From a bacterium (GTDB lineage: Bacteria; UBA8248; JACPRG01; G963555815), in assembly GCA_965261595.1 (NCBI GenBank), contig CBDHDG010000005.1, positions 192,001-256,000 of the forward strand: a stretch of 64,000 bases of DNA, written 5' to 3'. The position numbers were made by a program, and so were the translations under genes. Below, piece after piece: positions 8,617-38,085 of the stretch (its first letter is position 1; every line of letters begins with the position of its first letter). The notes beneath the pieces are model-generated. The model was not told the DNA's origin. It saw nothing but the letters and a program-made list of their open reading frames with translations, and searched no databases.

Positions 8617-9480
8617 TTGTCTCCGATCTTGCTGGCCCTTGCGGCCACAATCCTCTTCTCGTCCACGTTTGTCTGGGCGCGGCGGGGGGTGCTCTACTGC
8701 GACATCCTCCTGGGAACCCTGATCGCGTCCTGGATCAATTTTTTGATCCTGACGGCATGGGTGGCGGCGACGGCCCCGTTGTCGGCTTTTGCCGACAAAC
8801 GAATCCTCATGTTCTTCGGTCTCGGGCTTTTCGTGCCGTCCCTCTCAAGGCTCCTGCTCCTGGCGGCGGTGGAAAAGGTCGGCGCCTCCCGCGTCTCCAG
8901 CCTGCGGGCGATGTCGCCTTTTCTCGCCTCGCTGACGGCCGTCCTGTTCCTGGGCGAGCGGCCGACGCCCTGGAACGTGATCGGGATGATCGTGATCATC
9001 GCGGGCGGGATGATCCTGTCCAAGCCGGGGCGGAAGGAGCGGGTCTGGAGACGCAGGGACCTGATCTATCCGTTGGCGGGGATGGTTCTGCTCGGTTTCC
9101 GCGACGTGGTGATCCGGTATGGCGTGGCGGACCAACCGCATCCCGTCGTGGGCGCCTGGGCGATGCTTCTCAGCTCGGGTGTGGTCATCAGCGGGATCTG
9201 GCTGTGGCGGCGTCCGGCGGGAGAGGGTTTTCCCCCTCTGCGGGGTTGGATTTATTTCGGACTCGTGGGGGGGGTCCTGGGGATTGGCTTCGTGCTCTGG
9301 TTTTTCGCGTTCCAGACGGGCCGGGTCGTTACGCTGTCCCCCATCTCGGGGGCCACCCCGCTGTTCACCCTCCTGTTCAGCGCCATCTTCCTGCGGGACC
9401 TGGAAAGGCTGACCTGGCCCTTAGCGGCGGGGTGCCTGTGCATCGTGCTGGGGGGCGTCCTGGTGGCGCTCCGGATTTGA
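8617..9480 (+). CDS. DMT/EamA-family transporter
   Basis: ~10 TM; two EamA repeats (PFLASLTAVLFLGE; PLFTLLFSAIFL). Confidence 0.85.
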   Translation: MSPILLALAATILFSSTFVWARRGVLYCDILLGTLIASWINFLILTAWVAATAPLSAFADKRILMFFGLGLFVPSLSRLLLLAAVEKVGASRVSSLRAMSPFLASLTAVLFLGERPTPWNVIGMIVIIAGGMILSKPGRKERVWRRRDLIYPLAGMVLLGFRDVVIRYGVADQPHPVVGAWAMLLSSGVVISGIWLWRRPAGEGFPPLRGWIYFGLVGGVLGIGFVLWFFAFQTGRVVTLSPISGATPLFTLLFSAIFLRDLERLTWPLAAGCLCIVLGGVLVALRI

Positions 9481-9510
9481 GAAAGCCTGTAGCCCATTCA
9501 GGCGGCCCCC

Positions 9511-10461
9511 GTGCCGCGTAGCCCCGGGCGTCCGCCCTCCGCTTCGGTGCCGGCCCTGTACGGCGGTCTGCTTGTCGGCGTTGTCGCGGTTTCCGGCTCC
9601 GCTGTCTTCGTCAAGCTCTCCGGTCTCTCGGCGGCCAACATCGCGGCCGGCCGGATGACGATGGCCGTGCTCTTGATGGCCCCGTTCGCCCTGCGCCCGG
9701 CCTGGCGCGCGTGGAAGGATCTCGGCCGCAAAGAGGCCGCCCTTCTGGTCCTGGCCGGGGTCGGTTTGGGCGTCCATTTCGCTGTCTGGGTGGCCTCGCT
9801 CAAGTACATCTCGGTGGCCAGTTCGGTCATTCTGGTGACGACGAGCCCATTGTTCGTTTCGCTCGGTTCACGTTTTTGGCTGAAGGAGCCGCTGTCCCGC
9901 CGGCTGATCGTCGGGATGGTCGTCGCCGGCGCGGGCGCGGCCTGCGTCGCGTGGACGGACGCCCGGGGCCCGGGGCATGGTTTGACCGGAGACCTCCTCG
10001 CGCTGGCCGGGGCGGTCATGTTCTCGGTCTATCTGTTGGCGGGCGCGCGCCTGAGAAAGTCGCTCTCGACCGCCGCCTACACATTTCCCCTTTACGTTAT
10101 TTGCGCCGGGTTTCTCCTGCTGTTGGCCGCGGGGCCGAATCTCGGAGGACTGTGGGAGTTCGCCCGGGCGGATGGGCGGGAGTGGACGCTTCTCCTGCTG
10201 ATGGCGGTCGTTCCCACCCTGATCGGTCATAACTGTCTGAATTGGGCCCTTGGGCGCCTCTCTTCTCCCGTCGTGGCGACGGCGATCCTGGGCGAGCCCG
10301 TTCTGGCGGCGGTCTTCGCGTATTTCTTTCTGGGGGAGGGAATCTCCGCCGGTTTGGCCGTAGGGGGTGGATTGATCCTGGCGGGGGTTTTCGTGGCCGT
10401 CTCCGGGGCGGCGTCGGGGTCGGCCGGGTTCGGTCTTGACCGGCGAATGGGCGGGGACTAA
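9511..10461 (+). CDS. DMT/EamA-family transporter
   Basis: ~10 TM; GDLLALAGA, GEPVLAAVFAYFFLGE. Confidence 0.85.
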   Translation: MPRSPGRPPSASVPALYGGLLVGVVAVSGSAVFVKLSGLSAANIAAGRMTMAVLLMAPFALRPAWRAWKDLGRKEAALLVLAGVGLGVHFAVWVASLKYISVASSVILVTTSPLFVSLGSRFWLKEPLSRRLIVGMVVAGAGAACVAWTDARGPGHGLTGDLLALAGAVMFSVYLLAGARLRKSLSTAAYTFPLYVICAGFLLLLAAGPNLGGLWEFARADGREWTLLLLMAVVPTLIGHNCLNWALGRLSSPVVATAILGEPVLAAVFAYFFLGEGISAGLAVGGGLILAGVFVAVSGAASGSAGFGLDRRMGGD

Positions 10462-30435: not shown

Positions 30436-32184
30436 ATGGCCACGCACATCTTGGGAATTTCCTGCTTTTACCACGACGCCGCCGCCTGCCTCCTCCGGGA
30501 CGGCGAAGTGGTCGCCGCCGCCTCCGAGGAGCGTTTCACGCGCAAAAAGCATGACGCCGATTTCCCCATGAACGCCGTCCGGTACTGTCTGGAAGCGGGC
30601 GGGATTGAAATGGCCGACCTGGATCACGTCGGCTTTTACGACAAGCCGTTCACCAAGTTCGAGCGCATTCTCGAGACCTATCTCGCCGTCGCCCCCCGGG
30701 GCATCCAGTCCTGGGTCATGGCCATCCCCCTTTGGCTGAAAGAGAAGATCTTCATGCGCAAGACCATCGAGAAGAAGCTGGACGGCTATGAAGGGGACAT
30801 CCTGTTCTCCGAGCATCACGAATCCCACGCCGCCAGCGCCTTCTACTGCTCCCCCTTCGAGGAGGCGGCCATCCTGACGCTGGACGGCGTCGGCGAATGG
30901 GCAACGGCCGCCAAAGGTTTCGGCCGGGGGGAGGAGATCACCCTGACCCACGAGATCCATTTCCCCCATTCCCTGGGGCTTCTCTATACGGCGTTCACCT
31001 ATTATCTGGGTTTCAAGGTGAACAGCGGCGAATACAAGGTCATGGGTCTCGCGCCTTATGGGAAGCCCGAGTATTTCGACCTCATCATGGACCGCCTGAT
31101 CGATGTGAAGGCGGACGGCAGCTTCAAGCTGAACATGGATTACTTCGCCTACACCCACAAGCTTACGATGATCAACAAGAAGTTCAACGACCTGTTCGGG
31201 GCGCCCCCGCGGACGCCCGAGACCTGGCTCAACGAGCGGGAGTTCGACATCGCCGCGTCCATCCAGAAGGTGACCGAGGAGGTGGTCCTGCGGCTCTGCC
31301 GGAGCCTCCACGCGGAGACCGGCCTCGACAACCTCTGTCTGGCCGGGGGGGTGGCGCTCAACTGTGTGGCCAACGGGAAGATCATCAAACAGACGCCTTT
31401 CAAAGACATCTACGTCCAGCCCGCCGCGGGAGACGCCGGCGGCGCGCTCGGCGTCGCCCAGTTGATCTGGCACCGCTACCTGGGCCGGGAGCGAAAACAC
31501 CCGCTGCCGGACGCCTATCTGGGCCCGGAATACTCGAACGAGGAGATCAAGGCCTTCCTCGCGGAGAAAGGCGTGCCATATCGTGAGCTGGACCCGGAAA
31601 CGCTGGTAAGCGACGTCGCCCGGCTCATCGACGAGAAGAACATGATCGGCTGGTTTCAGGGCCGGATGGAGTTCGGCCCGCGCGCCCTGGGCGGCCGGAG
31701 CATCCTCGGCGACGCCCGCGACCCCGAGATGCGCAACATCGTCAATCGGCGGATCAAGTTTCGGGAGGGCTTCCGGCCTTTCGCCCCGACGGTCACGCTG
31801 GAAGGCTGTTCGGAGTGGTTCGAGCTGGACCAGCCGAGTCCCTATATGCTCCTGGTGGCCGACGTCCGGGAGGGCAAGCGCGTCATCCCTTCGGTGACCC
31901 ACGTGGACAACTCCGCCCGGATCCAGACCATCTCTGAAGCGGAGAACCCCCTCTACCACCGTCTCCTCAAGGCCTTCGAGGCCAGGACGGGTGTGCCTGT
32001 CATCATCAACACATCTTTCAACGTCCGGGGCGAGCCCATCGTCCGGACGCCGGCGGACGCTTACCTCTGCTTCATGCGGACGGACATGGATTATCTGGCG
32101 ATGGGCGATTTCCTGTTGGACAAGAAAGATCAGCCCCCGCTGAAAGAGGACATGGACTGGCGTTCACAGTTCGAGCTCGATTAG
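30436..32184 (+). CDS. O-carbamoyltransferase (NodU/CmcH/SxtI family)
   Basis: ILGISCFYHDAAA, EERFTRKKH, HHESHAASAF, DGVGE, EYKVMGLAPYG, GRMEFGPRALGGRS, FRPFAP, INTSFNVRGEPIV. Confidence 0.95.
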   Translation: MATHILGISCFYHDAAACLLRDGEVVAAASEERFTRKKHDADFPMNAVRYCLEAGGIEMADLDHVGFYDKPFTKFERILETYLAVAPRGIQSWVMAIPLWLKEKIFMRKTIEKKLDGYEGDILFSEHHESHAASAFYCSPFEEAAILTLDGVGEWATAAKGFGRGEEITLTHEIHFPHSLGLLYTAFTYYLGFKVNSGEYKVMGLAPYGKPEYFDLIMDRLIDVKADGSFKLNMDYFAYTHKLTMINKKFNDLFGAPPRTPETWLNEREFDIAASIQKVTEEVVLRLCRSLHAETGLDNLCLAGGVALNCVANGKIIKQTPFKDIYVQPAAGDAGGALGVAQLIWHRYLGRERKHPLPDAYLGPEYSNEEIKAFLAEKGVPYRELDPETLVSDVARLIDEKNMIGWFQGRMEFGPRALGGRSILGDARDPEMRNIVNRRIKFREGFRPFAPTVTLEGCSEWFELDQPSPYMLLVADVREGKRVIPSVTHVDNSARIQTISEAENPLYHRLLKAFEARTGVPVIINTSFNVRGEPIVRTPADAYLCFMRTDMDYLAMGDFLLDKKDQPPLKEDMDWRSQFELD

Positions 32185-32403
32185 CGGGCAATCCAGCAGG
32201 AGCGCGATGCGCTCGGCGTTGCGCCGTACGTCACGAGCGGCCTATTTCGCCCGCGCCGGGCGAGTGGATCGGCGGCGCGCAGAACTCGGGCGCCTCACCG
32301 GCGGGCCGTGGACAGTGTAGTCCCGAAGGACCCATTCACGGACATCGTCAGAAAATTCGAGGTCGGAATATAGGCTTTTTTATCTCTCGGTACGCGCCAT
32401 GAT

Positions 32404-33345
32404 TCAGCACAGGAGTGAGATAAGGGCTTCCTCGGGGGGAGTGGAGGCCTTCGCCGGAGAGGATGAGGCATTCAGCCGGGTGAGATAGAAAAAGGTTAAA
32501 AAGGCTGGAACCTGGACTTTGATACGCTGGATGCCGAATACAGCGGCGCAGGTCTCCAACCATTCTTTCGCGGATGACGCGAGAGGCGAGAGCAGACAGT
32601 CAAAAGCAAAGCCGGCCACGTCGAACATAATGTTCCCGAGTCGGGTCGCTTCGAAATCGATGATTCCAGCCAGTCGACGGTTGATTCCAGCGGATCGCGG
32701 AGACGTGACCAGTACATTGTAAGTCGTGAGTGAGCCGTGCACGATTTTGTCCGTGCACCCTGCCCAGTCTTCTTGGCCGGCGTTGTCTAATACTCGTTGG
32801 AGCGCTGAATTCAGCCGATCGGTCAAGTTTTCTTTATGAACCGCAAAAAATTCACCCGCGGCTTTTGTGGGATTGAAATCTTTAGCGTGAGTGCCGATCC
32901 TTCGTTGCGCCTTGGCTTCGCACAGGTCGTGAACCCGGGTTTGGTTTTGGAAATCTCTGAGCCAAAATGCCATGTCTTGAAAGATTCGTTTTCTTGAAGA
33001 GCCATCCATGGTTCCCATCACGTGGTGAAGCGAGACCCCCTGGAGCTCTTCCGTGATGAGGAAATGGGACCCATCGGGAATGGCTCTCCCGTGGCAGAGC
33101 AGCCTGGGGACGAAACCGGCTGAATCCTCCAAGGCCTCCAGGACGTCCGCCTCATCGGCGACGGACATCGAAGGCTGCGGTCCCCCCTGAAACTTGAGGA
33201 AAATCGGGTTGGACGGCTCTCTCAGCGTAAGGCGATAGGTGAGGTTGCGGCCTTCGAGGTTACAGGCCTCGATGGCCAAAATTTCCTCCGGGCGGGTCTG
33301 AAGCGTCGAGGCCAGGGTCCGGCGGATCGCGTCCTTCGTTATCAA
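32404..33345 (-). CDS. Aminoglycoside-phosphotransferase (APH)/kinase-fold protein with HGS in place of HGD
   Basis: IFLKF, EADVL, FVPRLL, FLITEELQG, IVHGSLTTYNVLV, IIDFE, MFDVA; TTG start overlaps ATP-grasp stop (TTGA). Confidence 0.75.
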   Translation of the reverse strand: MITKDAIRRTLASTLQTRPEEILAIEACNLEGRNLTYRLTLREPSNPIFLKFQGGPQPSMSVADEADVLEALEDSAGFVPRLLCHGRAIPDGSHFLITEELQGVSLHHVMGTMDGSSRKRIFQDMAFWLRDFQNQTRVHDLCEAKAQRRIGTHAKDFNPTKAAGEFFAVHKENLTDRLNSALQRVLDNAGQEDWAGCTDKIVHGSLTTYNVLVTSPRSAGINRRLAGIIDFEATRLGNIMFDVAGFAFDCLLSPLASSAKEWLETCAAVFGIQRIKVQVPAFLTFFYLTRLNASSSPAKASTPPEEALISLLC

Positions 33346-34343
33346 ACCGGCCCCCGAGAGAGGAGATGGGCGATCGCCTTGGAGATTTCCAATCCGGTCA
33401 ACTCCTCGATCCACCCCCACTGCCCGTTGGGATTCAACTCCAGAAATGTGACGGCGCCGTCGGGCGACACAACGAGGTCGACGGTCGAGAACGCAAGACC
33501 GAGCCGCTTCGTGAGAGCGACACATTTCTCCGCGAGCTCCGGCTGAAGATCTTGAGCGACATGGGGGGTGTTCGGAAAGTCATAGCGCCGCCAATCCACG
33601 CTTGTTTGCGGCGTTGCTTGGGAGTGAATTTCACAGGCGAATGTTTCTTGGCCGACAACGGTGACCCTGAGCTCGCACTGCTTTTCCAGATAGGCTTGGT
33701 AGGTTGCCGGGCAAACCGCCAGTGGGTCATCGCGCCCAACGTCCTTGTCCTCAAGAAGAGCGGTATAGATGCAGTATTGCTCCTCGGGATTGGGCGCCCG
33801 GGGCGGGCCCTTTGAAACGAGCTTTGCCGCGCAACGCTGTCCCCGGTCCCGAAGAGCGGTGTAAAAGTCCCGCACCTCATCCGGCCGCGCGGAAACCAAC
33901 GTCTCCGGTATGCAGAACCCGCAGGCCCGGGCCACCTTGAGTTGATAGAGCTTGTAAGAAGCGGTTCGAATTGATTCGGGATGGCTGACCCAGGGACAAT
34001 CCAGAGAATACAAGGTCCCATAAAGTTGAGCCTTCAGCTCCGAAGCGGCAAATGCGCGCGCGCCGGGATCGGTAACCGAGGAATCCGGAACGGGCGCCTC
34101 GGGCCGGCGAACCCAGATCGAGGCGATATCTTTTCCGTCTACCACGACCTCATCCACCACGACCCTGACTTGCGGAGCTCCTGACCCGATCCGGTAGTCG
34201 ATGTGGGCGGATGTTCCGAAAATCTCGGTGTTCAGCCGAACATAAGACGCACCGATCCGTCCGAGCTCTTTTTCAACGAGCGAGGCGGTCTCATCGCCCT
34301 CGCTGGTCAGGATCAAAACAGTCGGCGGCGACGACGGTTCCAC
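33342..34343 (-). CDS. ATP-grasp ribosomal peptide maturase (MvdC/MvdD-type graspetide synthetase)
   Basis: VLILTS..DET, IWVRRP, ASYKLYQLKVARACGFCIPETLVS, QAYLEKQCELRVTVVG, DWRR, FLELNPNGQWGWIE. Confidence 0.9.
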   Translation of the reverse strand: MEPSSPPTVLILTSEGDETASLVEKELGRIGASYVRLNTEIFGTSAHIDYRIGSGAPQVRVVVDEVVVDGKDIASIWVRRPEAPVPDSSVTDPGARAFAASELKAQLYGTLYSLDCPWVSHPESIRTASYKLYQLKVARACGFCIPETLVSARPDEVRDFYTALRDRGQRCAAKLVSKGPPRAPNPEEQYCIYTALLEDKDVGRDDPLAVCPATYQAYLEKQCELRVTVVGQETFACEIHSQATPQTSVDWRRYDFPNTPHVAQDLQPELAEKCVALTKRLGLAFSTVDLVVSPDGAVTFLELNPNGQWGWIEELTGLEISKAIAHLLSRGPV

Positions 34344-34362
34344 GAATTTGCCCGAGGATGAT

Positions 34363-34551
34363 CTAGTCGTCCGAATTGTAATCCATCGGATCGCTGGTGG
34401 TCAGGGAGGACGAGGTCATTCCCCGATTCGACATGTCGACAATATATTCCCGCTTGCTGAAAAGAAGCGGCTCGGGACCCGGCGGATCTTCAGCCGGAAT
34501 CTTGATTTCTTCTACGGACGGCTCAACGTGTGCTGTCTTGGCTGAACTCAT
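34363..34551 (-). CDS. Putative graspetide precursor peptide (62 aa)
   Basis: GGAGG RBS 5 nt before ATG; MSSAKTAHVEPSVEEIKIPAEDPPGPEPLLFSKREYIVDMSNRGMTSSSLTTSDPMDYNSDD; ends 19 nt before the ATP-grasp gene. Confidence 0.8.
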   Translation of the reverse strand: MSSAKTAHVEPSVEEIKIPAEDPPGPEPLLFSKREYIVDMSNRGMTSSSLTTSDPMDYNSDD

Positions 34552-34720
34552 CGAATCCTCCCTGAATGGATGTCGGCGCTTCAAACCTCGAGGATCGAAA
34601 CACCTTTTTCGTCTTGGGCGCAACGTAACACACATCAAAACTCGCAATCAACCGAGATCCCGCCTCCCCCATCCAGCGCGGTGGCCAAAAGCAATCTTCC
34701 GCCGGTTGCTTCGCTTGCCC

Positions 34721-35314
34721 TCAAAACTCGATTCCGGGTTGCGCCTTGATTCCAGCCCGATATGGATGCTTCACCATCTTCATTTCCGTAACCAGGTCGG
34801 CCATTTCGATTAATTCGGGCTTGGCCCCGCGTCCGGTGAGTATCACATGAAGCATCTCCCGCTTTTTTTGAAGTGCGTCCAGGACTTCATCGAGCGACAG
34901 TTGATTCTTGTGGATGGCCACATTGATTTCGTCGAGCAGGACCATGCCGATGTCGCGCCGCTCCAACAATTCCAGCGACTTCTCCCAGGCCTTTCGAGCC
35001 GCGCGCCGGTCCATCTCTTGATCCTGGGTGATCCAGGTGAACCCATCACCCATCCGGCGCCACTCGACCTGGTCCCCAAATCTCTTGAACACTTCCGTTT
35101 CGCCGGTGGGCATCACGCCTTTAATGAATTGAACGACCCCGACACGAATTCCGTGGTGAATCGTCCGCAGCAGCATCCCGAACGCCGCCGTGCTCTTCCC
35201 TTTCCCCGGACCCGTGTGGACGATGATCAGGCCTTTTTCCCGCGTGGCCATCGCCTTTCGCTTTGCATGAGATTCATGGATGCGCTGCATCTTGTCTTGA
35301 TAGGCATCACCCAT
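34721..35314 (-). CDS. cobO: Cob(I)yrinic acid a,c-diamide adenosyltransferase (CobO/BtuR)
   Basis: HTGPGKGKSTAAFG, VQFIKG, MGDGFTW, LLDEIN, LTGR, ADLVTEM..KHPY..GIEF. Confidence 0.95.
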   Translation of the reverse strand: MGDAYQDKMQRIHESHAKRKAMATREKGLIIVHTGPGKGKSTAAFGMLLRTIHHGIRVGVVQFIKGVMPTGETEVFKRFGDQVEWRRMGDGFTWITQDQEMDRRAARKAWEKSLELLERRDIGMVLLDEINVAIHKNQLSLDEVLDALQKKREMLHVILTGRGAKPELIEMADLVTEMKMVKHPYRAGIKAQPGIEF

Positions 35315-36086
35315 TTCTGATTCTCCTGGAGAAACCGTAATGGCGTTCGCCGTTGTGCACCCAATAGTGGGTCTCGACCTCGAACACCTTTCGCATCAAC
35401 CCGGGGAGCAACACTTCGTTCGTTGTCCCTTCGGCCACCAGCCGGCCGTCATGGACCAGCAAGAGCCGATCGCAGAATTGTTGGGCAAGGTTCAGGTCGT
35501 GAATCGCCACCGTAATCGTCCGCCCGTCGGCCGCCTGTCCGCGTAGGATGTCGAGAAGGTCCAGGCAGTGCCGAATATCCAGGTTCGCGGTGGGCTCGTC
35601 CAACAAAAGGACAGACGCCTCGGTCGCCAGGGTCCGCGCCAGGAGAACGCGCTGACGCTCTCCCCCTGAGAGATCGTTGACCGGCCGGCCTTTGAGCGAG
35701 TCCGCGTCGACCGCGCTGAGGGCGGCATCCACGGCCCGCCGGTCCTCAGGCCCCTCAGACCCGAACCGTTTTACGTGCGCGTACCGTCCCATCATCACAA
35801 CGTCTTCAATGGGCAGGGAAAAAGGGACTTCCGTGCTTTGGGGCAGGTAACCCACGCGGCGGGCCACTTCTCGCCGGGACAGAGCGGACAAGTCCCGCCG
35901 ATCGATTTTCACGCGACCCGCCGCCAGCGGGACGAGCCCCGTCAGGGCGCGCAACAAGGTGGATTTCCCCGCGCCGTTGGGCCCAAGAATCCCCGTGACC
36001 GCTCCCTCCTCGAACGAGAGCGTGACATCCCGCAGCACGGACCGTCCGCCGAGCTCCACGCTTCCATCTTCCATGGCCAGCTTCAT
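35307..36086 (-). CDS. btuD: Cobalamin/Fe-siderophore ABC transporter ATP-binding protein (BtuD-like)
   Basis: GPNGAGKS, LSGGERQR, LLLDEPT, IHDLN; TGATG overlap with permease. Confidence 0.88.
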   Translation of the reverse strand: MKLAMEDGSVELGGRSVLRDVTLSFEEGAVTGILGPNGAGKSTLLRALTGLVPLAAGRVKIDRRDLSALSRREVARRVGYLPQSTEVPFSLPIEDVVMMGRYAHVKRFGSEGPEDRRAVDAALSAVDADSLKGRPVNDLSGGERQRVLLARTLATEASVLLLDEPTANLDIRHCLDLLDILRGQAADGRTITVAIHDLNLAQQFCDRLLLVHDGRLVAEGTTNEVLLPGLMRKVFEVETHYWVHNGERHYGFSRRIRNG

Positions 36087-37120
36087 CAGAACACCTCGGT
36101 CCGTTTCCGATGCCGCAAGACAAGATACAAGAAAAACGGCCCCCCCAGACCGGATGTCAAAATCCCCAGACGGATTTCCTCTCCGGCGAGGATTGAGCGG
36201 GAGAGAAGATCCATTCCCGTCAGCAAGACCGCGCCCGCCAGCATGCTCGCGGGCAAAAGACGCCGGTGGTCCGGTCCCAGAAGCAGCCGGACGATGTGAG
36301 GGACGAGCAGGCCGACGAACCCGATGACGCCGGCGACGGCCACGGCCGCTCCAGCCGCTCCGGCCGCGACCGTGAGGATCCAGCGCTTGGTTTGGGCCGT
36401 GTTCACCCCCAAGGCCAGGGCCGACTCCTCTCCGGTCATCATCACGTTGAGCTCTCTCGAAAAGCACAAAGAGGCGGCAACGCAGACGACGAAAAAGGGG
36501 AGGATCATGAAAACATGCTCCCACGTCCGGTTTGTCAGACCGCCCATCAGCCAGAAGAGGATCTGGCGTCCGATCTCCCATTCGCGGACGCTGAAGCTCA
36601 AGACCAGTGAGGTGAGCGCGCCGGCAATCGAGTTGATGGCAAGGCCGCAGAGGATGAGCGTGGCGATGGGCGTCCGTCCCCGATGGGTCGATAACGCGTA
36701 AACCTGGAAGGCGGTCAACAAGGCCGCGCCGAAGGCCATCCCGGGCACCGCCCAGATGGAGAGGGCGCCCAGGCCGAGCGCGATCGCCGAGGTCGCCCCC
36801 AGCGCGCCCCCCATGCTGACACCGATGACACCGGGGCTCGCCATCGGATTCCGGAACAGTCCCTGGAGGAGCGCCCCGGACAAGGCCAAAGCCGCTCCGA
36901 CCAGCGCGCCCGTCAGGACGCGCGGAAGGCGGATGTACCAAACGATCGCCCGTTCCTGTTGACTGATGTTCGCGGCTTCCGGGGATCTCAATCCCGTTTC
37001 GACCAGAAGAACATCGGCCACTTTGTCCCAGCTCAAATCCGCCGGCCCGGACGTGATCCCGAGAGTCATCGTCACAACGAGAAGCCCCAGGCAAAGGCTC
37101 AGGATGATCGAGCCTCTCAT
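36086..37120 (-). CDS. btuC: FecCD/BtuC-family ABC permease
   Basis: IRLPR, LQGLFRNPMASP, GEESALALGV, IGFVGLLVPH, GGPFFL. Confidence 0.9.
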   Translation of the reverse strand: MRGSIILSLCLGLLVVTMTLGITSGPADLSWDKVADVLLVETGLRSPEAANISQQERAIVWYIRLPRVLTGALVGAALALSGALLQGLFRNPMASPGVIGVSMGGALGATSAIALGLGALSIWAVPGMAFGAALLTAFQVYALSTHRGRTPIATLILCGLAINSIAGALTSLVLSFSVREWEIGRQILFWLMGGLTNRTWEHVFMILPFFVVCVAASLCFSRELNVMMTGEESALALGVNTAQTKRWILTVAAGAAGAAVAVAGVIGFVGLLVPHIVRLLLGPDHRRLLPASMLAGAVLLTGMDLLSRSILAGEEIRLGILTSGLGGPFFLYLVLRHRKRTEVF

Positions 37121-37239
37121 GGGCGCATTCCTTGAACGAGATCCCCGATGTCTTCAACGACGTAACGGGCGCCGGTTGTGACATGGGCAAAGAGAATGGC
37201 GAGGGCTCGTTCGTTCATGAGATGTCTGAAGAGACCCTC

Positions 37240-38085
37240 TTATTCAGCGAGAATGGCTCGTCGAATCAAACGCGCCCGCAAATCGGCGGCGGCGTCGGCG
37301 ATGAAATGGGAGTTGGTGTACAAGGTCCGGGCCGGGATTCCGATCACACGCCGGGTGCGCACCGCCGTCAGGGACGAATAGCGGAGATCCGTCCGAAGCC
37401 TCTTGATCCATCCCTCGAACTGAAGGTAACCCTCGCTGACCAGAATCAAGTCAGGATCCACTTTCAGGACCCATTCCAACTGGACGACCCTGTGGCCGTC
37501 GATTTCCGATGCGGCATTTTTCAACCCGGCGTACTTGATAATCACCTCCACGCTGGTGTTTTTGCCGGAGGTCCAACCGCCCGGTGTGTAGAACAAAGCG
37601 CTCAGCCCGGAGCTCGGAAGACCCTCCAGGTTTTGAAGCTTTCGATCCATTTTCCGGATGAGGCTCTCCGCTTTCAGCGTTTTCCCGATGGCCCGCGCCA
37701 CCACGAGAATGCTCCGGCGGATGTCCTCCAAGCCAAGCGGTGTGGGCACCCTCGTTACGGACACTCCCGCTTGCCTGATCAGGGCCTCCACTTCTTTGGC
37801 GGCTCGGGTGGAAAGAAGCACCAAGTCGGGACCCAGCTCCAGGATGCTCTCCACATCGTCTCGCCTGAGCCGGGGAATCCCCTTGGCCAGACTGAAAACA
37901 TAACACTTGAGCGGATCGTTCGCGTACCGCGAAACCCCGACGACTCTCTCTCGGGATGCCAGGGAAAGCAGAATTTCATCCGTGACGACGGACAGCGAGA
38001 CGATTCGCTTCGGCGCCGCCGCGGCCGATCCTTCAGCGCCGAAACACAGGATCATAAAGAGGAGAGGGAGGACCCAGCGTTTCAC
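37240..38085 (-). CDS. btuF: Periplasmic binding protein, BtuF/HemV-like
   Basis: Signal peptide, PKRIVSLS..DEILLSL, ESILELGPDLV; in cobalamin operon. Confidence 0.8.
   Translation of the reverse strand: MKRWVLPLLFMILCFGAEGSAAAAPKRIVSLSVVTDEILLSLASRERVVGVSRYANDPLKCYVFSLAKGIPRLRRDDVESILELGPDLVLLSTRAAKEVEALIRQAGVSVTRVPTPLGLEDIRRSILVVARAIGKTLKAESLIRKMDRKLQNLEGLPSSGLSALFYTPGGWTSGKNTSVEVIIKYAGLKNAASEIDGHRVVQLEWVLKVDPDLILVSEGYLQFEGWIKRLRTDLRYSSLTAVRTRRVIGIPARTLYTNSHFIADAAADLRARLIRRAILAE

Follow-up and report, generated by a model that had tools for sequence, protein, structure and literature searches.

We analysed 64,000 nucleotides of a bacterial genome assembly (GCA_965261595.1, contig CBDHDG010000005.1, positions 192,001 to 256,000 of the forward strand), referred to here as the window. 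Three co-oriented genes on its minus strand, about 2.2 kb in all, code for a small peptide, an ATP-grasp ligase and a protein with the fold of the aminoglycoside phosphotransferases (APH) (Table 1). A sequence-only reading of this DNA had taken them for a graspetide system, that is, for genes making an ATP-grasp-modified member of the peptides made by ribosomes and modified after translation (RiPPs). The family of the ligase, the conserved precursor and the conserved gene order speak for this proposal, and the assignment as a self-contained three-gene graspetide cassette is well supported on computational grounds. Graspetides increasingly serve as a source of macrocycles that inhibit proteases, and some of their synthetases have recently been shown to depend on a partner protein.

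Layout and products of the cassette

The layout described in that reading was recovered in every detail, including the orientation and coordinates of the three genes. The open reading frame (ORF) of 62 residues has a good ribosome-binding site and ends 19 nt before the GTG start of the ligase gene at 34343. The TGA stop of the ligase gene and the TTG start of the APH-fold gene (33345) overlap as TTGA.

Table 1. Positions of the cassette genes and of selected sites within them (window coordinates).
Feature	Position	Strand	Basis
Shine-Dalgarno-like AGGGAGG	34557..34563	-	5 nt upstream of the precursor ATG; read from the sequence
Precursor peptide gene, 62 aa + stop	34363..34551	-	ORF, ATG at 34551, stop TAG 34363-34365; homologues upstream of ligases
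Leader recognition-type motif PLLFSKREY, residues 28-36	34444..34470	-	PLL[FY]xKRE kept in all cassettes, at a fixed distance from the core
Core peptide, residues 46-62	34366..34416	-	gapless C-terminal alignment with 7 distinct metagenome cassette cores
Graspetide ATP-grasp ligase, 333 aa, GTG start	33342..34343	-	PF21068; TIGR04187/MvdC/MvdD end to end; PDB relatives MdnB, MdnC
APH-fold accessory protein, 313 aa, TTG start	32404..33345	-	PF01636; AlphaFold2 model; Foldseek
K51, equivalent of the beta3 ATP-binding Lys	33193..33195	-	invariant, with E65, in 26-sequence alignment
Catalytic-loop equivalent H203-G-S205-L-T-T-Y-N210	32716..32739	-	Ser at the place of the catalytic Asp; profile alignment
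D230-F-E232, DFG-equivalent Mg-binding Asp	32650..32658	-	D230 and E232 invariant in 26-sequence alignment

Anchored at the C-terminus, the window peptide and seven distinct metagenome peptides from the loci described below align without a gap. A leader motif, PLL[FY]xKRE[YF], is followed by 9-10 variable residues and then by a core at the very C-terminus with the consensus [ST]-T-[ST]-C-Q-x-T-x-N-P-x-D-[YW]-G-P-D-D. The cores are rich in Thr and Ser in their N-terminal half and end in D-[YW]-x-x-D-D. Conserved candidate donors are four Thr/Ser positions, and conserved candidate acceptors are three Asp residues and the C-terminus. The window peptide is the most divergent of the set. In its core, MTSSSLTTSDPMDYNSDD, Ser replaces the Cys and N-S the G-P of the other cores; its candidate acceptors are Asp54, Asp57, Asp61, Asp62 and the C-terminus. 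As this core contains no Lys, no lactam is expected. The precursor ORF has no match in Pfam or NCBIfam. A second precursor-like ORF was not found in the same genome, where the sole other match has an E-value of 0.5. Since the microviridin leader serves ligase binding, the PLL[FY]xKRE motif may by analogy have the same role.

All the ligase motifs quoted in the sequence-only reading as hallmarks of the MvdC/MvdD type are present (KLYQL...GFCIPETLVS, ELRVTVVG, DWRR and FLELNPNGQW), and the MvdD pre-ATP-grasp domain PF21068 is matched at 3.3e-14 (53.4 bits against a cut-off of 27). Among the NCBIfam models compared, the best match is TIGR04187 (SAV_5884 type; 233 bits against a curated cut-off of 350, E 3.5e-69), followed by MvdC (TIGR04185; 193 against 425 bits, E 5.1e-57) and MvdD (TIGR04184; 182 against 475 bits, E 1.6e-53), all three aligning end to end, and by the grasp-with-spasm model (TIGR04192; 91 against 230 bits). 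RimK (TIGR00768) reaches 33 bits (cut-off 143, E 3.3e-8) over residues 216-325 and LysX 19 bits (cut-off 276), both confined to the C-terminal third of the protein; MptN reaches 23 bits (cut-off 350). The ligase stays below the curated full-length cut-offs of these alpha-L-glutamate ligases and is not of the RimK/LysX/MptN type. The solved structures that it matches are graspetide synthetases only, with MdnB first (1.6e-41), then MdnC, AMdnB, 9bou, CdnC and PsnB, so that it groups with the peptide maturases, as the graspetide proposal demands. Because all maturase scores lie below the curated cut-offs, we place it as a graspetide synthetase outside the named subfamilies. The cassette thus combines two features of a graspetide system: an MvdC/MvdD-type ligase with a pre-ATP-grasp domain, and an adjacent precursor made up of a leader and a Thr/Ser/Asp-rich core.

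Homologues of the ligase number 741 at E up to 1e-10. Among the 120 nearest of these, in which it was counted, a clade signature of fixed spacing, GPP-x7-QY-x113-NPNGQWG, occurs in 43 sequences with 43-59% identity to the window ligase; the other 77 have a shorter, different loop at the site of the GPP-x7-QY insertion. The window's own genome has one graspetide ligase only (a single match), and the ligase is found in none of 40 relatives. Two much longer homologues, P0159 (711 aa) and P0160 (591 aa), contain a graspetide-type ATP-grasp part at 33-34% identity together with an unexplained extra 260-380 residues.

Conservation and distribution of the three genes

Conservation of the gene order was analysed in 12 metagenome loci picked by the ligase-internal signature, used as a DNA pattern. 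This selection is blind to the neighbours and therefore a fair test. The loci contain seven distinct ligase sequences, several being near-identical copies from different samples. In all 12, a small ORF with the same kind of core lies directly upstream of the ligase gene (nine detected by phmmer, three by eye), and an APH-like ORF lies directly downstream on the same strand. This APH-like ORF is cut by the contig end in L089 and L091; in L085 there is only a 91-residue APH-like piece, followed by a stop 78 nt from the contig end. Two further cassettes with the same order, L099 and L100, were found in actinobacterial genomes by means of the APH-like profile. The recurrence of both the short ORF and the APH gene beside ligase homologues, which the sequence-only reading had proposed as a check, was thus confirmed in 12 of 12 metagenome loci and in both actinobacterial cassettes.

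The APH-like gene was not seen with more distant graspetide ligases. In 80 loci of such ligases (30-41% identity, species-representative genomes), phmmer detected no APH-like relative at E up to 1e-3, the family profile gave nothing except a weak generic match (6.6e-4) in L037, and the ligase signature was absent from all 80. In a phylogeny of 86 ligases, the 10 APH-linked sequences fall on one side of a branch with a Shimodaira-Hasegawa-like approximate likelihood ratio support of 99, the 76 unlinked ones on the other; this tree comes from a quick IQ-TREE search only, L100 forms a long branch in it, and the sets of sequences were gathered by different routes.

The junction of ligase and APH-like gene reads TTGA in the window and GTGA in L091; it is an overlap of 8 nt in L094 and of 11 nt in L087, a gap of 3 nt in L084, probably an overlap in L092 and L085, and ambiguous in L088. 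In L088 and L093 (4871-4928), none of ATG, GTG and TTG occurs in the APH-like frame close to the stop of the ligase gene, and a canonical start is first met 57 nt into the conserved N-terminus. The protein may be truncated or begin at a non-canonical start, or the sequence may contain an error.

It might be argued that the three genes are mere neighbours, the small ORF being spurious or the ATP-grasp protein an unrelated housekeeping ligase of the RimK/LysX type, as the small ORF has no family match and the ligase scores below the curated maturase cut-offs. However, order and adjacency are kept in 10 distinct cassettes (the window, seven from metagenomes and two from genomes) with otherwise unrelated flanks, conservation of the leader and core motifs extends to single residues, and the best maturase model outscores RimK and LysX by 233 to 33 and 19 bits. 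This explanation is close to refuted. Every related locus examined has the small ORF and the APH-fold gene again, in unchanged order; the three-gene arrangement is therefore far beyond chance, and we regard gene order, family assignments and strict co-inheritance of the three genes as established by computation.

The cassette is present in at least two phyla. A search of 401 genomes from the GTDB family to which Nocardia brasiliensis belongs gave three with a match to the APH-like profile at E up to 1e-20. Two of them (G301, G054) have the full cassette in the order precursor, ligase and APH-like gene with the HGS-type loop described below; in the third (G310), the APH is of the ordinary HGD type and there is no ligase in its vicinity. 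In the phylum of the window, represented in our collection by 51 species genomes of one class, the APH-like gene occurs in the window's genome only (1/51; 0/29 among high-quality genomes). The source organism thus lies outside the actinobacteria, and the distribution of the cassette is patchy. Its RpoB (1368 aa) was compared with five named genomes (Nitrospirae, Acidobacteriaceae, Nannocystis, Dactylosporangium), one of which gave no match; identity amounts to 58-64% over the longest aligned pieces and to 45-72% when pieces are taken singly. The flanks of six metagenome cassettes analysed with Pfam share nothing else, so that only the three genes travel together, as would a mobile module. The metagenome copies lie next to genes for defence or mobility. 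Beside single cassettes we noticed genes for Cas10/Cmr2 and a RAMP protein (L084, 381-3197, with an integrase fragment at 9346-9738), an AbiEii/AbiEi pair (L092, 526-1997), a Y2 transposase (L087, 169-1335) and an Amidoligase_2 and GATase_6 pair (L085, 109-1707).

DNA of the window cassette was found in sequencing runs of eight studies. In two metatranscriptome runs of one study, RNA contigs with at least 99% identity cover the precursor gene (34274-34620 and 34353-34578), and one contig piece each lies in the ligase gene (33698-33872) and in the APH-like gene (33012-33188). Contigs from RNA libraries are a weak hint of expression which cannot rank the genes, may include DNA carry-over and is uninformative for the uncovered parts.

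In the window, the cassette is flanked by a convergent carbamoyltransferase gene (30436-32184) on one side and by a gene for a BtuR/CobO adenosyltransferase (34721-35314) on the other, upstream and on the same strand, both identified by Pfam. Neither a protease nor a peptide exporter adjoins it, in line with the sequence-only reading. The btuR gene belongs to an apparent cobalamin cluster on the same strand (34721-38085). As judged by eye from the translations, with no family search, the C-terminal part of a long ORF (35307-37190) is ABC ATPase-like, a second ORF (36086-37120) permease-like and a third (37240-38085) periplasmic-binding-like, so that the ORFs beyond btuR look like B12 uptake genes. 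Read-through transcription into the precursor gene is possible, as btuR lies just 169 nt from it. A promoter and terminator scan of 32150-34800 revealed no terminator and a single promoter-like site inside the precursor gene, no more than shuffled sequences give. The three cassette proteins had no match in a PADLOC scan, hence no support for a known defence system. The G+C content of the cassette is 57.5%, that of the window 63%.

The APH-fold protein and its catalytic loop

The third protein matches PF01636 (APH) at 1.1e-12 with 48.7 bits, the gathering threshold being 23.2. Its AlphaFold2 model has a predicted local distance difference test score of 93 and a predicted template modelling (TM) score of 0.92, and the top Foldseek matches of this model are APH(2'') and APH(4) enzymes and capreomycin phosphotransferase (TM 0.6-0.7 to APH(2'')-IIIa and others). 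The homologues have N-termini that agree with the TTG start. A longer ORF of 373 residues from an ATG at 33525 would overlap the ligase gene by 180 nt.

Proteins of this family are rare. HMMER, run exhaustively against 1.84 billion representatives, yielded 38 matches with E up to 1e-3, 16 of them with E up to 1e-10; a word-index search with the window protein returned one relative only, and a protein atlas search nothing but generic APH clusters. One 74-residue fragment (P0125) is 89% identical to the C-terminus of the window protein, so that another data set contains a cassette closely related to this one. No solved structure was matched by the window sequence alone, even at E up to 1. The family profile matched viomycin kinase/Cph001 best (4.2e-12), followed by APH(3')-VIII, hygromycin kinases and capreomycin phosphotransferase (8.5e-10). 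The APH-like proteins diverge faster than the ligases, with 23-34% against 44-56% identity for the same pairs of cassettes.

In an alignment of 26 family sequences, K51, E65, G204, D230 and E232 are invariant, and S205 and N210 are conserved in at least 90%. Profile alignment places S205 exactly on the catalytic Asp of the APH enzymes: HGS stands opposite HGD of APH(3')-VIII and opposite HGN of the crystallised Cph001 mutant D189N. The loop was located in 34 family sequences, with 29 cases of HGS, two of QGS, two of HGD and one of HGA, while the search pattern missed 11 further sequences or fragments. Ser is thus found at the catalytic position in 31 of 34, and the protein is probably not an ordinary Ser/Thr kinase. 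In the clade of the window the loop has the form HGSL[TS]TxN; that of the window protein, HGSLTTYN, contains no acidic residue. Hence the kinase-fold accessory postulated from the sequence stands, as Pfam, the model and Foldseek agree, but the phosphorylation of +80 Da that it implied has become less likely.

We favour, with a probability of roughly 0.55, the reading that the APH-fold protein is an accessory which binds ATP and has a non-canonical or non-catalytic role. Nucleotide binding, and probably catalysis, is indicated by the invariance of the ATP and Mg ligands. Loss of the catalytic base throughout the family speaks against ordinary O-phosphorylation. An obligate partner or a peptide-holding subunit would fit the strict co-inheritance, the overlapping genes and the precedent of MirC (see below), and the relation to the Cph and Vph kinases fits peptide binding or self-protection.

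In the mechanism we propose, the ligase would bind the leader through PLL[FY]xKRE and, with ATP, join Thr/Ser hydroxyls in the N-terminal half of the core by ester bonds to beta-carboxylates of the Asp residues in the C-terminal D-Y-x-x-D-D. Judged from the core residues, this may give as many as three lactone rings. The third protein, a cassette-specific APH fold which keeps K51, E65, N210 and D230 and has Ser at the place of the catalytic base, would most likely work, as an accessory that binds ATP, on the peptide or in direct concert with the ligase, or both. Conceivable roles are those of an obligate partner, of a subunit that holds the peptide, or of an enzyme whose ATP-dependent chemistry is non-canonical. 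Overlap of the stop and start codons suggests that ligase and accessory are made in fixed proportion.

A number of observations weigh against this picture. In none of the four NCBIfam maturase models does the ligase reach the curated cut-off, and the ring pattern is consequently not transferable from any characterised group. Two members of the APH-like family keep HGD and one has HGA. A clade with L099, P0134 and L088 has an acidic residue two positions past the Ser (HGSFDPxN or HGSFEPxN), which might partly replace the lost base, in this clade only. For a pure scaffold, invariant Lys, Glu, Asn and Asp residues would be unnecessary, which favours some catalysis, and the Ser-containing loop could support slow or assisted phosphoryl transfer. 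Finally, no fusion of ligase and APH was found among the longer ligase homologues (two longer matches, neither with PF01636), although this is weak evidence.

The protein could instead be a working kinase whose product, a phospho-graspetide (+80 Da), would arise by O-phosphorylation of a Ser or Thr in the core, either ahead of cyclisation or once the rings are in place. Such a role would agree with the PF01636 score, which is well above the threshold, with the invariance of all ATP and Mg ligands, and with the four conserved Thr/Ser of the core, which outnumber the hydroxyls needed for three esters. Peptide kinases of the APH family exist, among them those of the class V lanthipeptides. Others are Cph and Vph, reported to phosphorylate capreomycin and viomycin on a peptide Ser (PMC10730852), and phosphotransferases have been noted in graspetide groups 29 and 37 (PMC13097080). 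However, the residue replaced by Ser in 31 of the 34 located loops is the one found indispensable in Cph001, where D189A and D189N abolish activity (PMC10730852), and the loop of the window protein has no acidic residue to take over. We therefore consider a conventional kinase possible but rather doubtful.

In class V lanthipeptides and thioamitides, dehydration is performed by a pair of an APH-type kinase and a HopA1-like lyase. A corresponding function as the kinase of a lanthipeptide-like dehydration was rejected, since no lyase or cyclase is conserved and the Cys of the other cores is a Ser in that of the window. Among the Pfam-scanned neighbours in the window and six loci, there is no lyase beside the APH-like gene, and no further gene is conserved by the cassette.

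Within the preferred reading, and with a low probability overall, the HGS protein may be a true enzyme introducing an ATP-dependent modification new to RiPPs and other than hydroxyl phosphorylation. Examples would be adenylylation, or phosphorylation of a surplus C-terminal carboxylate of the invariant -D-D end; the latter would be compatible with an Asp-less site, as the substrate needs no general base. In that case the family would represent a repurposed kinase like SelO, SidJ and CalN, dedicated to a graspetide.

A function in producer immunity, with the APH-fold protein sequestering or inactivating the mature graspetide in the cell like the resistance kinases of antibiotic clusters, appears improbable to us. 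The best profile matches among solved structures are indeed self-resistance enzymes against peptide antibiotics, and Cph is reported to protect partly without catalysis, by sequestering a non-phosphorylatable peptide congener (PMC10730852). The rapid divergence of the APH-like proteins is what binders of variable ligands might show, and no exporter is conserved in the cassette. Yet sequestration would require as much of the protein as of its ligand, a product normally made in excess, and it does not call for invariant ATP-site residues. Moreover, no peptide target or toxicity is known, and many graspetide clusters have no immunity gene, for example those of groups 27, 28 and 35, described as consisting of synthetase and precursor only (PMC13097080).

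The ATP-binding accessory with a non-canonical or non-catalytic role thus remains our preferred reading. The cassette is minimal and pairs its ligase with a very rare kinase-fold family that has lost the catalytic base. If this reading is true, the third protein would be a pseudokinase-type partner of an ATP-grasp macrocyclase, or a kinase fold with non-canonical ATP chemistry on a ribosomal peptide. Either outcome would mean a new biosynthetic logic, and possibly a new modification, for RiPPs.

Comparison with known systems

Microviridins are made with two ligases from a TxKxPSD-type core containing a lactam-forming Lys, and their systems include an N-acetyltransferase. Their ligases MdnB/MdnC (MvdC/MvdD, group 1) have the same fold and domain order as the window ligase, PF21068 followed by ATP-grasp, and are its best solved relatives (5ig8, 1.6e-41; 5ig9, 1.7e-35). 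The microviridin leader, represented by PFFARFL in a group-1 row of the 2026 RODEO census, is a short hydrophobic motif comparable to that of the window precursor. The window cassette differs in having one ligase instead of two, a core of different motif without Lys, neither a GCN5-related N-acetyltransferase nor a transporter next to it, and a ligase with the GPP-x7-QY insertion.

Groups 29 and 37 of that census often have an extra predicted phosphotransferase; they are uncharacterised and reported only from Actinomycetota (PMC13097080). In this respect they are like the window cassette, but their precursors are not. The group 29 rows, from Streptomyces, combine a leader of the PFALRLFT type with cores whose last residue is mostly W or C, and the group 37 rows, from Embleya, have cores ending in KKDD or TDD. 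None of the rows compared from either group resembles PLL[FY]xKRE ... D[YW]xxDD.

Among the census rows covered by our comparison, which are part of its table, the precursor motifs are absent from all numbered groups, 1-43 (PMC13097080). These rows contain none of the core motifs DYGPDD, DYNSDD, YGPDD, WGPDD, DWTPDD, DWGPDD, TTSCQ and TTTCQ and none of the leader motifs PLLYQ, PLLFQKRE and PLLYQKRE; PLLFQ occurs once, in an unrelated group-5 peptide. A C-terminal GPDD together with a PLLY/PFLY...RE leader is found in only two of the rows covered, both without a group number: MDR0285446.1 (Propionibacteriaceae) and WP_382360361.1 (Gordonia phosphorivorans), the latter resembling the L100 cassette. 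The main text of the 2022 phylogenomic survey names no APH-type kinase among graspetide-associated families (PMC8939145). Literature searches on graspetides with kinases and on graspetides since 2022 yielded no description of this cassette, and one on pseudokinases with RiPPs only indirect precedent. The suspicion that the cassette belongs to an undescribed subgroup holds within these sources, where the two ungrouped actinobacterial rows look related.

A parallel to a possible obligate partner is MirC, with which the rosaritide synthetase is reported as the first graspetide synthetase depending on a partner protein (PMC13097080). MirC is not a ligase but a protein of enzyme-fold descent that strictly co-occurs with the synthetase, is needed for its activity and stability and co-purifies with it (PMC13097080). 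It is a divergent peptidyl-prolyl isomerase of the PpiC type, in contrast to the kinase fold found here.

The peptide-antibiotic kinases Cph, Vph and Cph001 share the fold of the window protein, are the best matches of the family profile among solved structures and act on or sequester cyclic peptides (PMC10730852). They differ in keeping the catalytic Asp (D189 in Cph001) and in being resistance genes of non-ribosomal peptide synthetase clusters, and their similarity to the window protein is remote.

A nucleotide site that is kept while the base is lost also recalls other repurposed kinases. The AMPylase SelO and the glutamylase SidJ are kinase folds without the canonical base. The kinase-derived 'pseudokinase' CalN is described as carrying out ATP-dependent nitrile formation (cited in PMC13060819). 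All three perform ATP chemistry other than O-phosphorylation and are brought in as an analogy only.

Phosphotransferases had already been noted in two other, actinobacterial, graspetide groups with different precursors (PMC13097080). New in the present cassette is the APH-fold partner, a tiny family which has retained the ATP and Mg residues and carries Ser at the position of the catalytic Asp.

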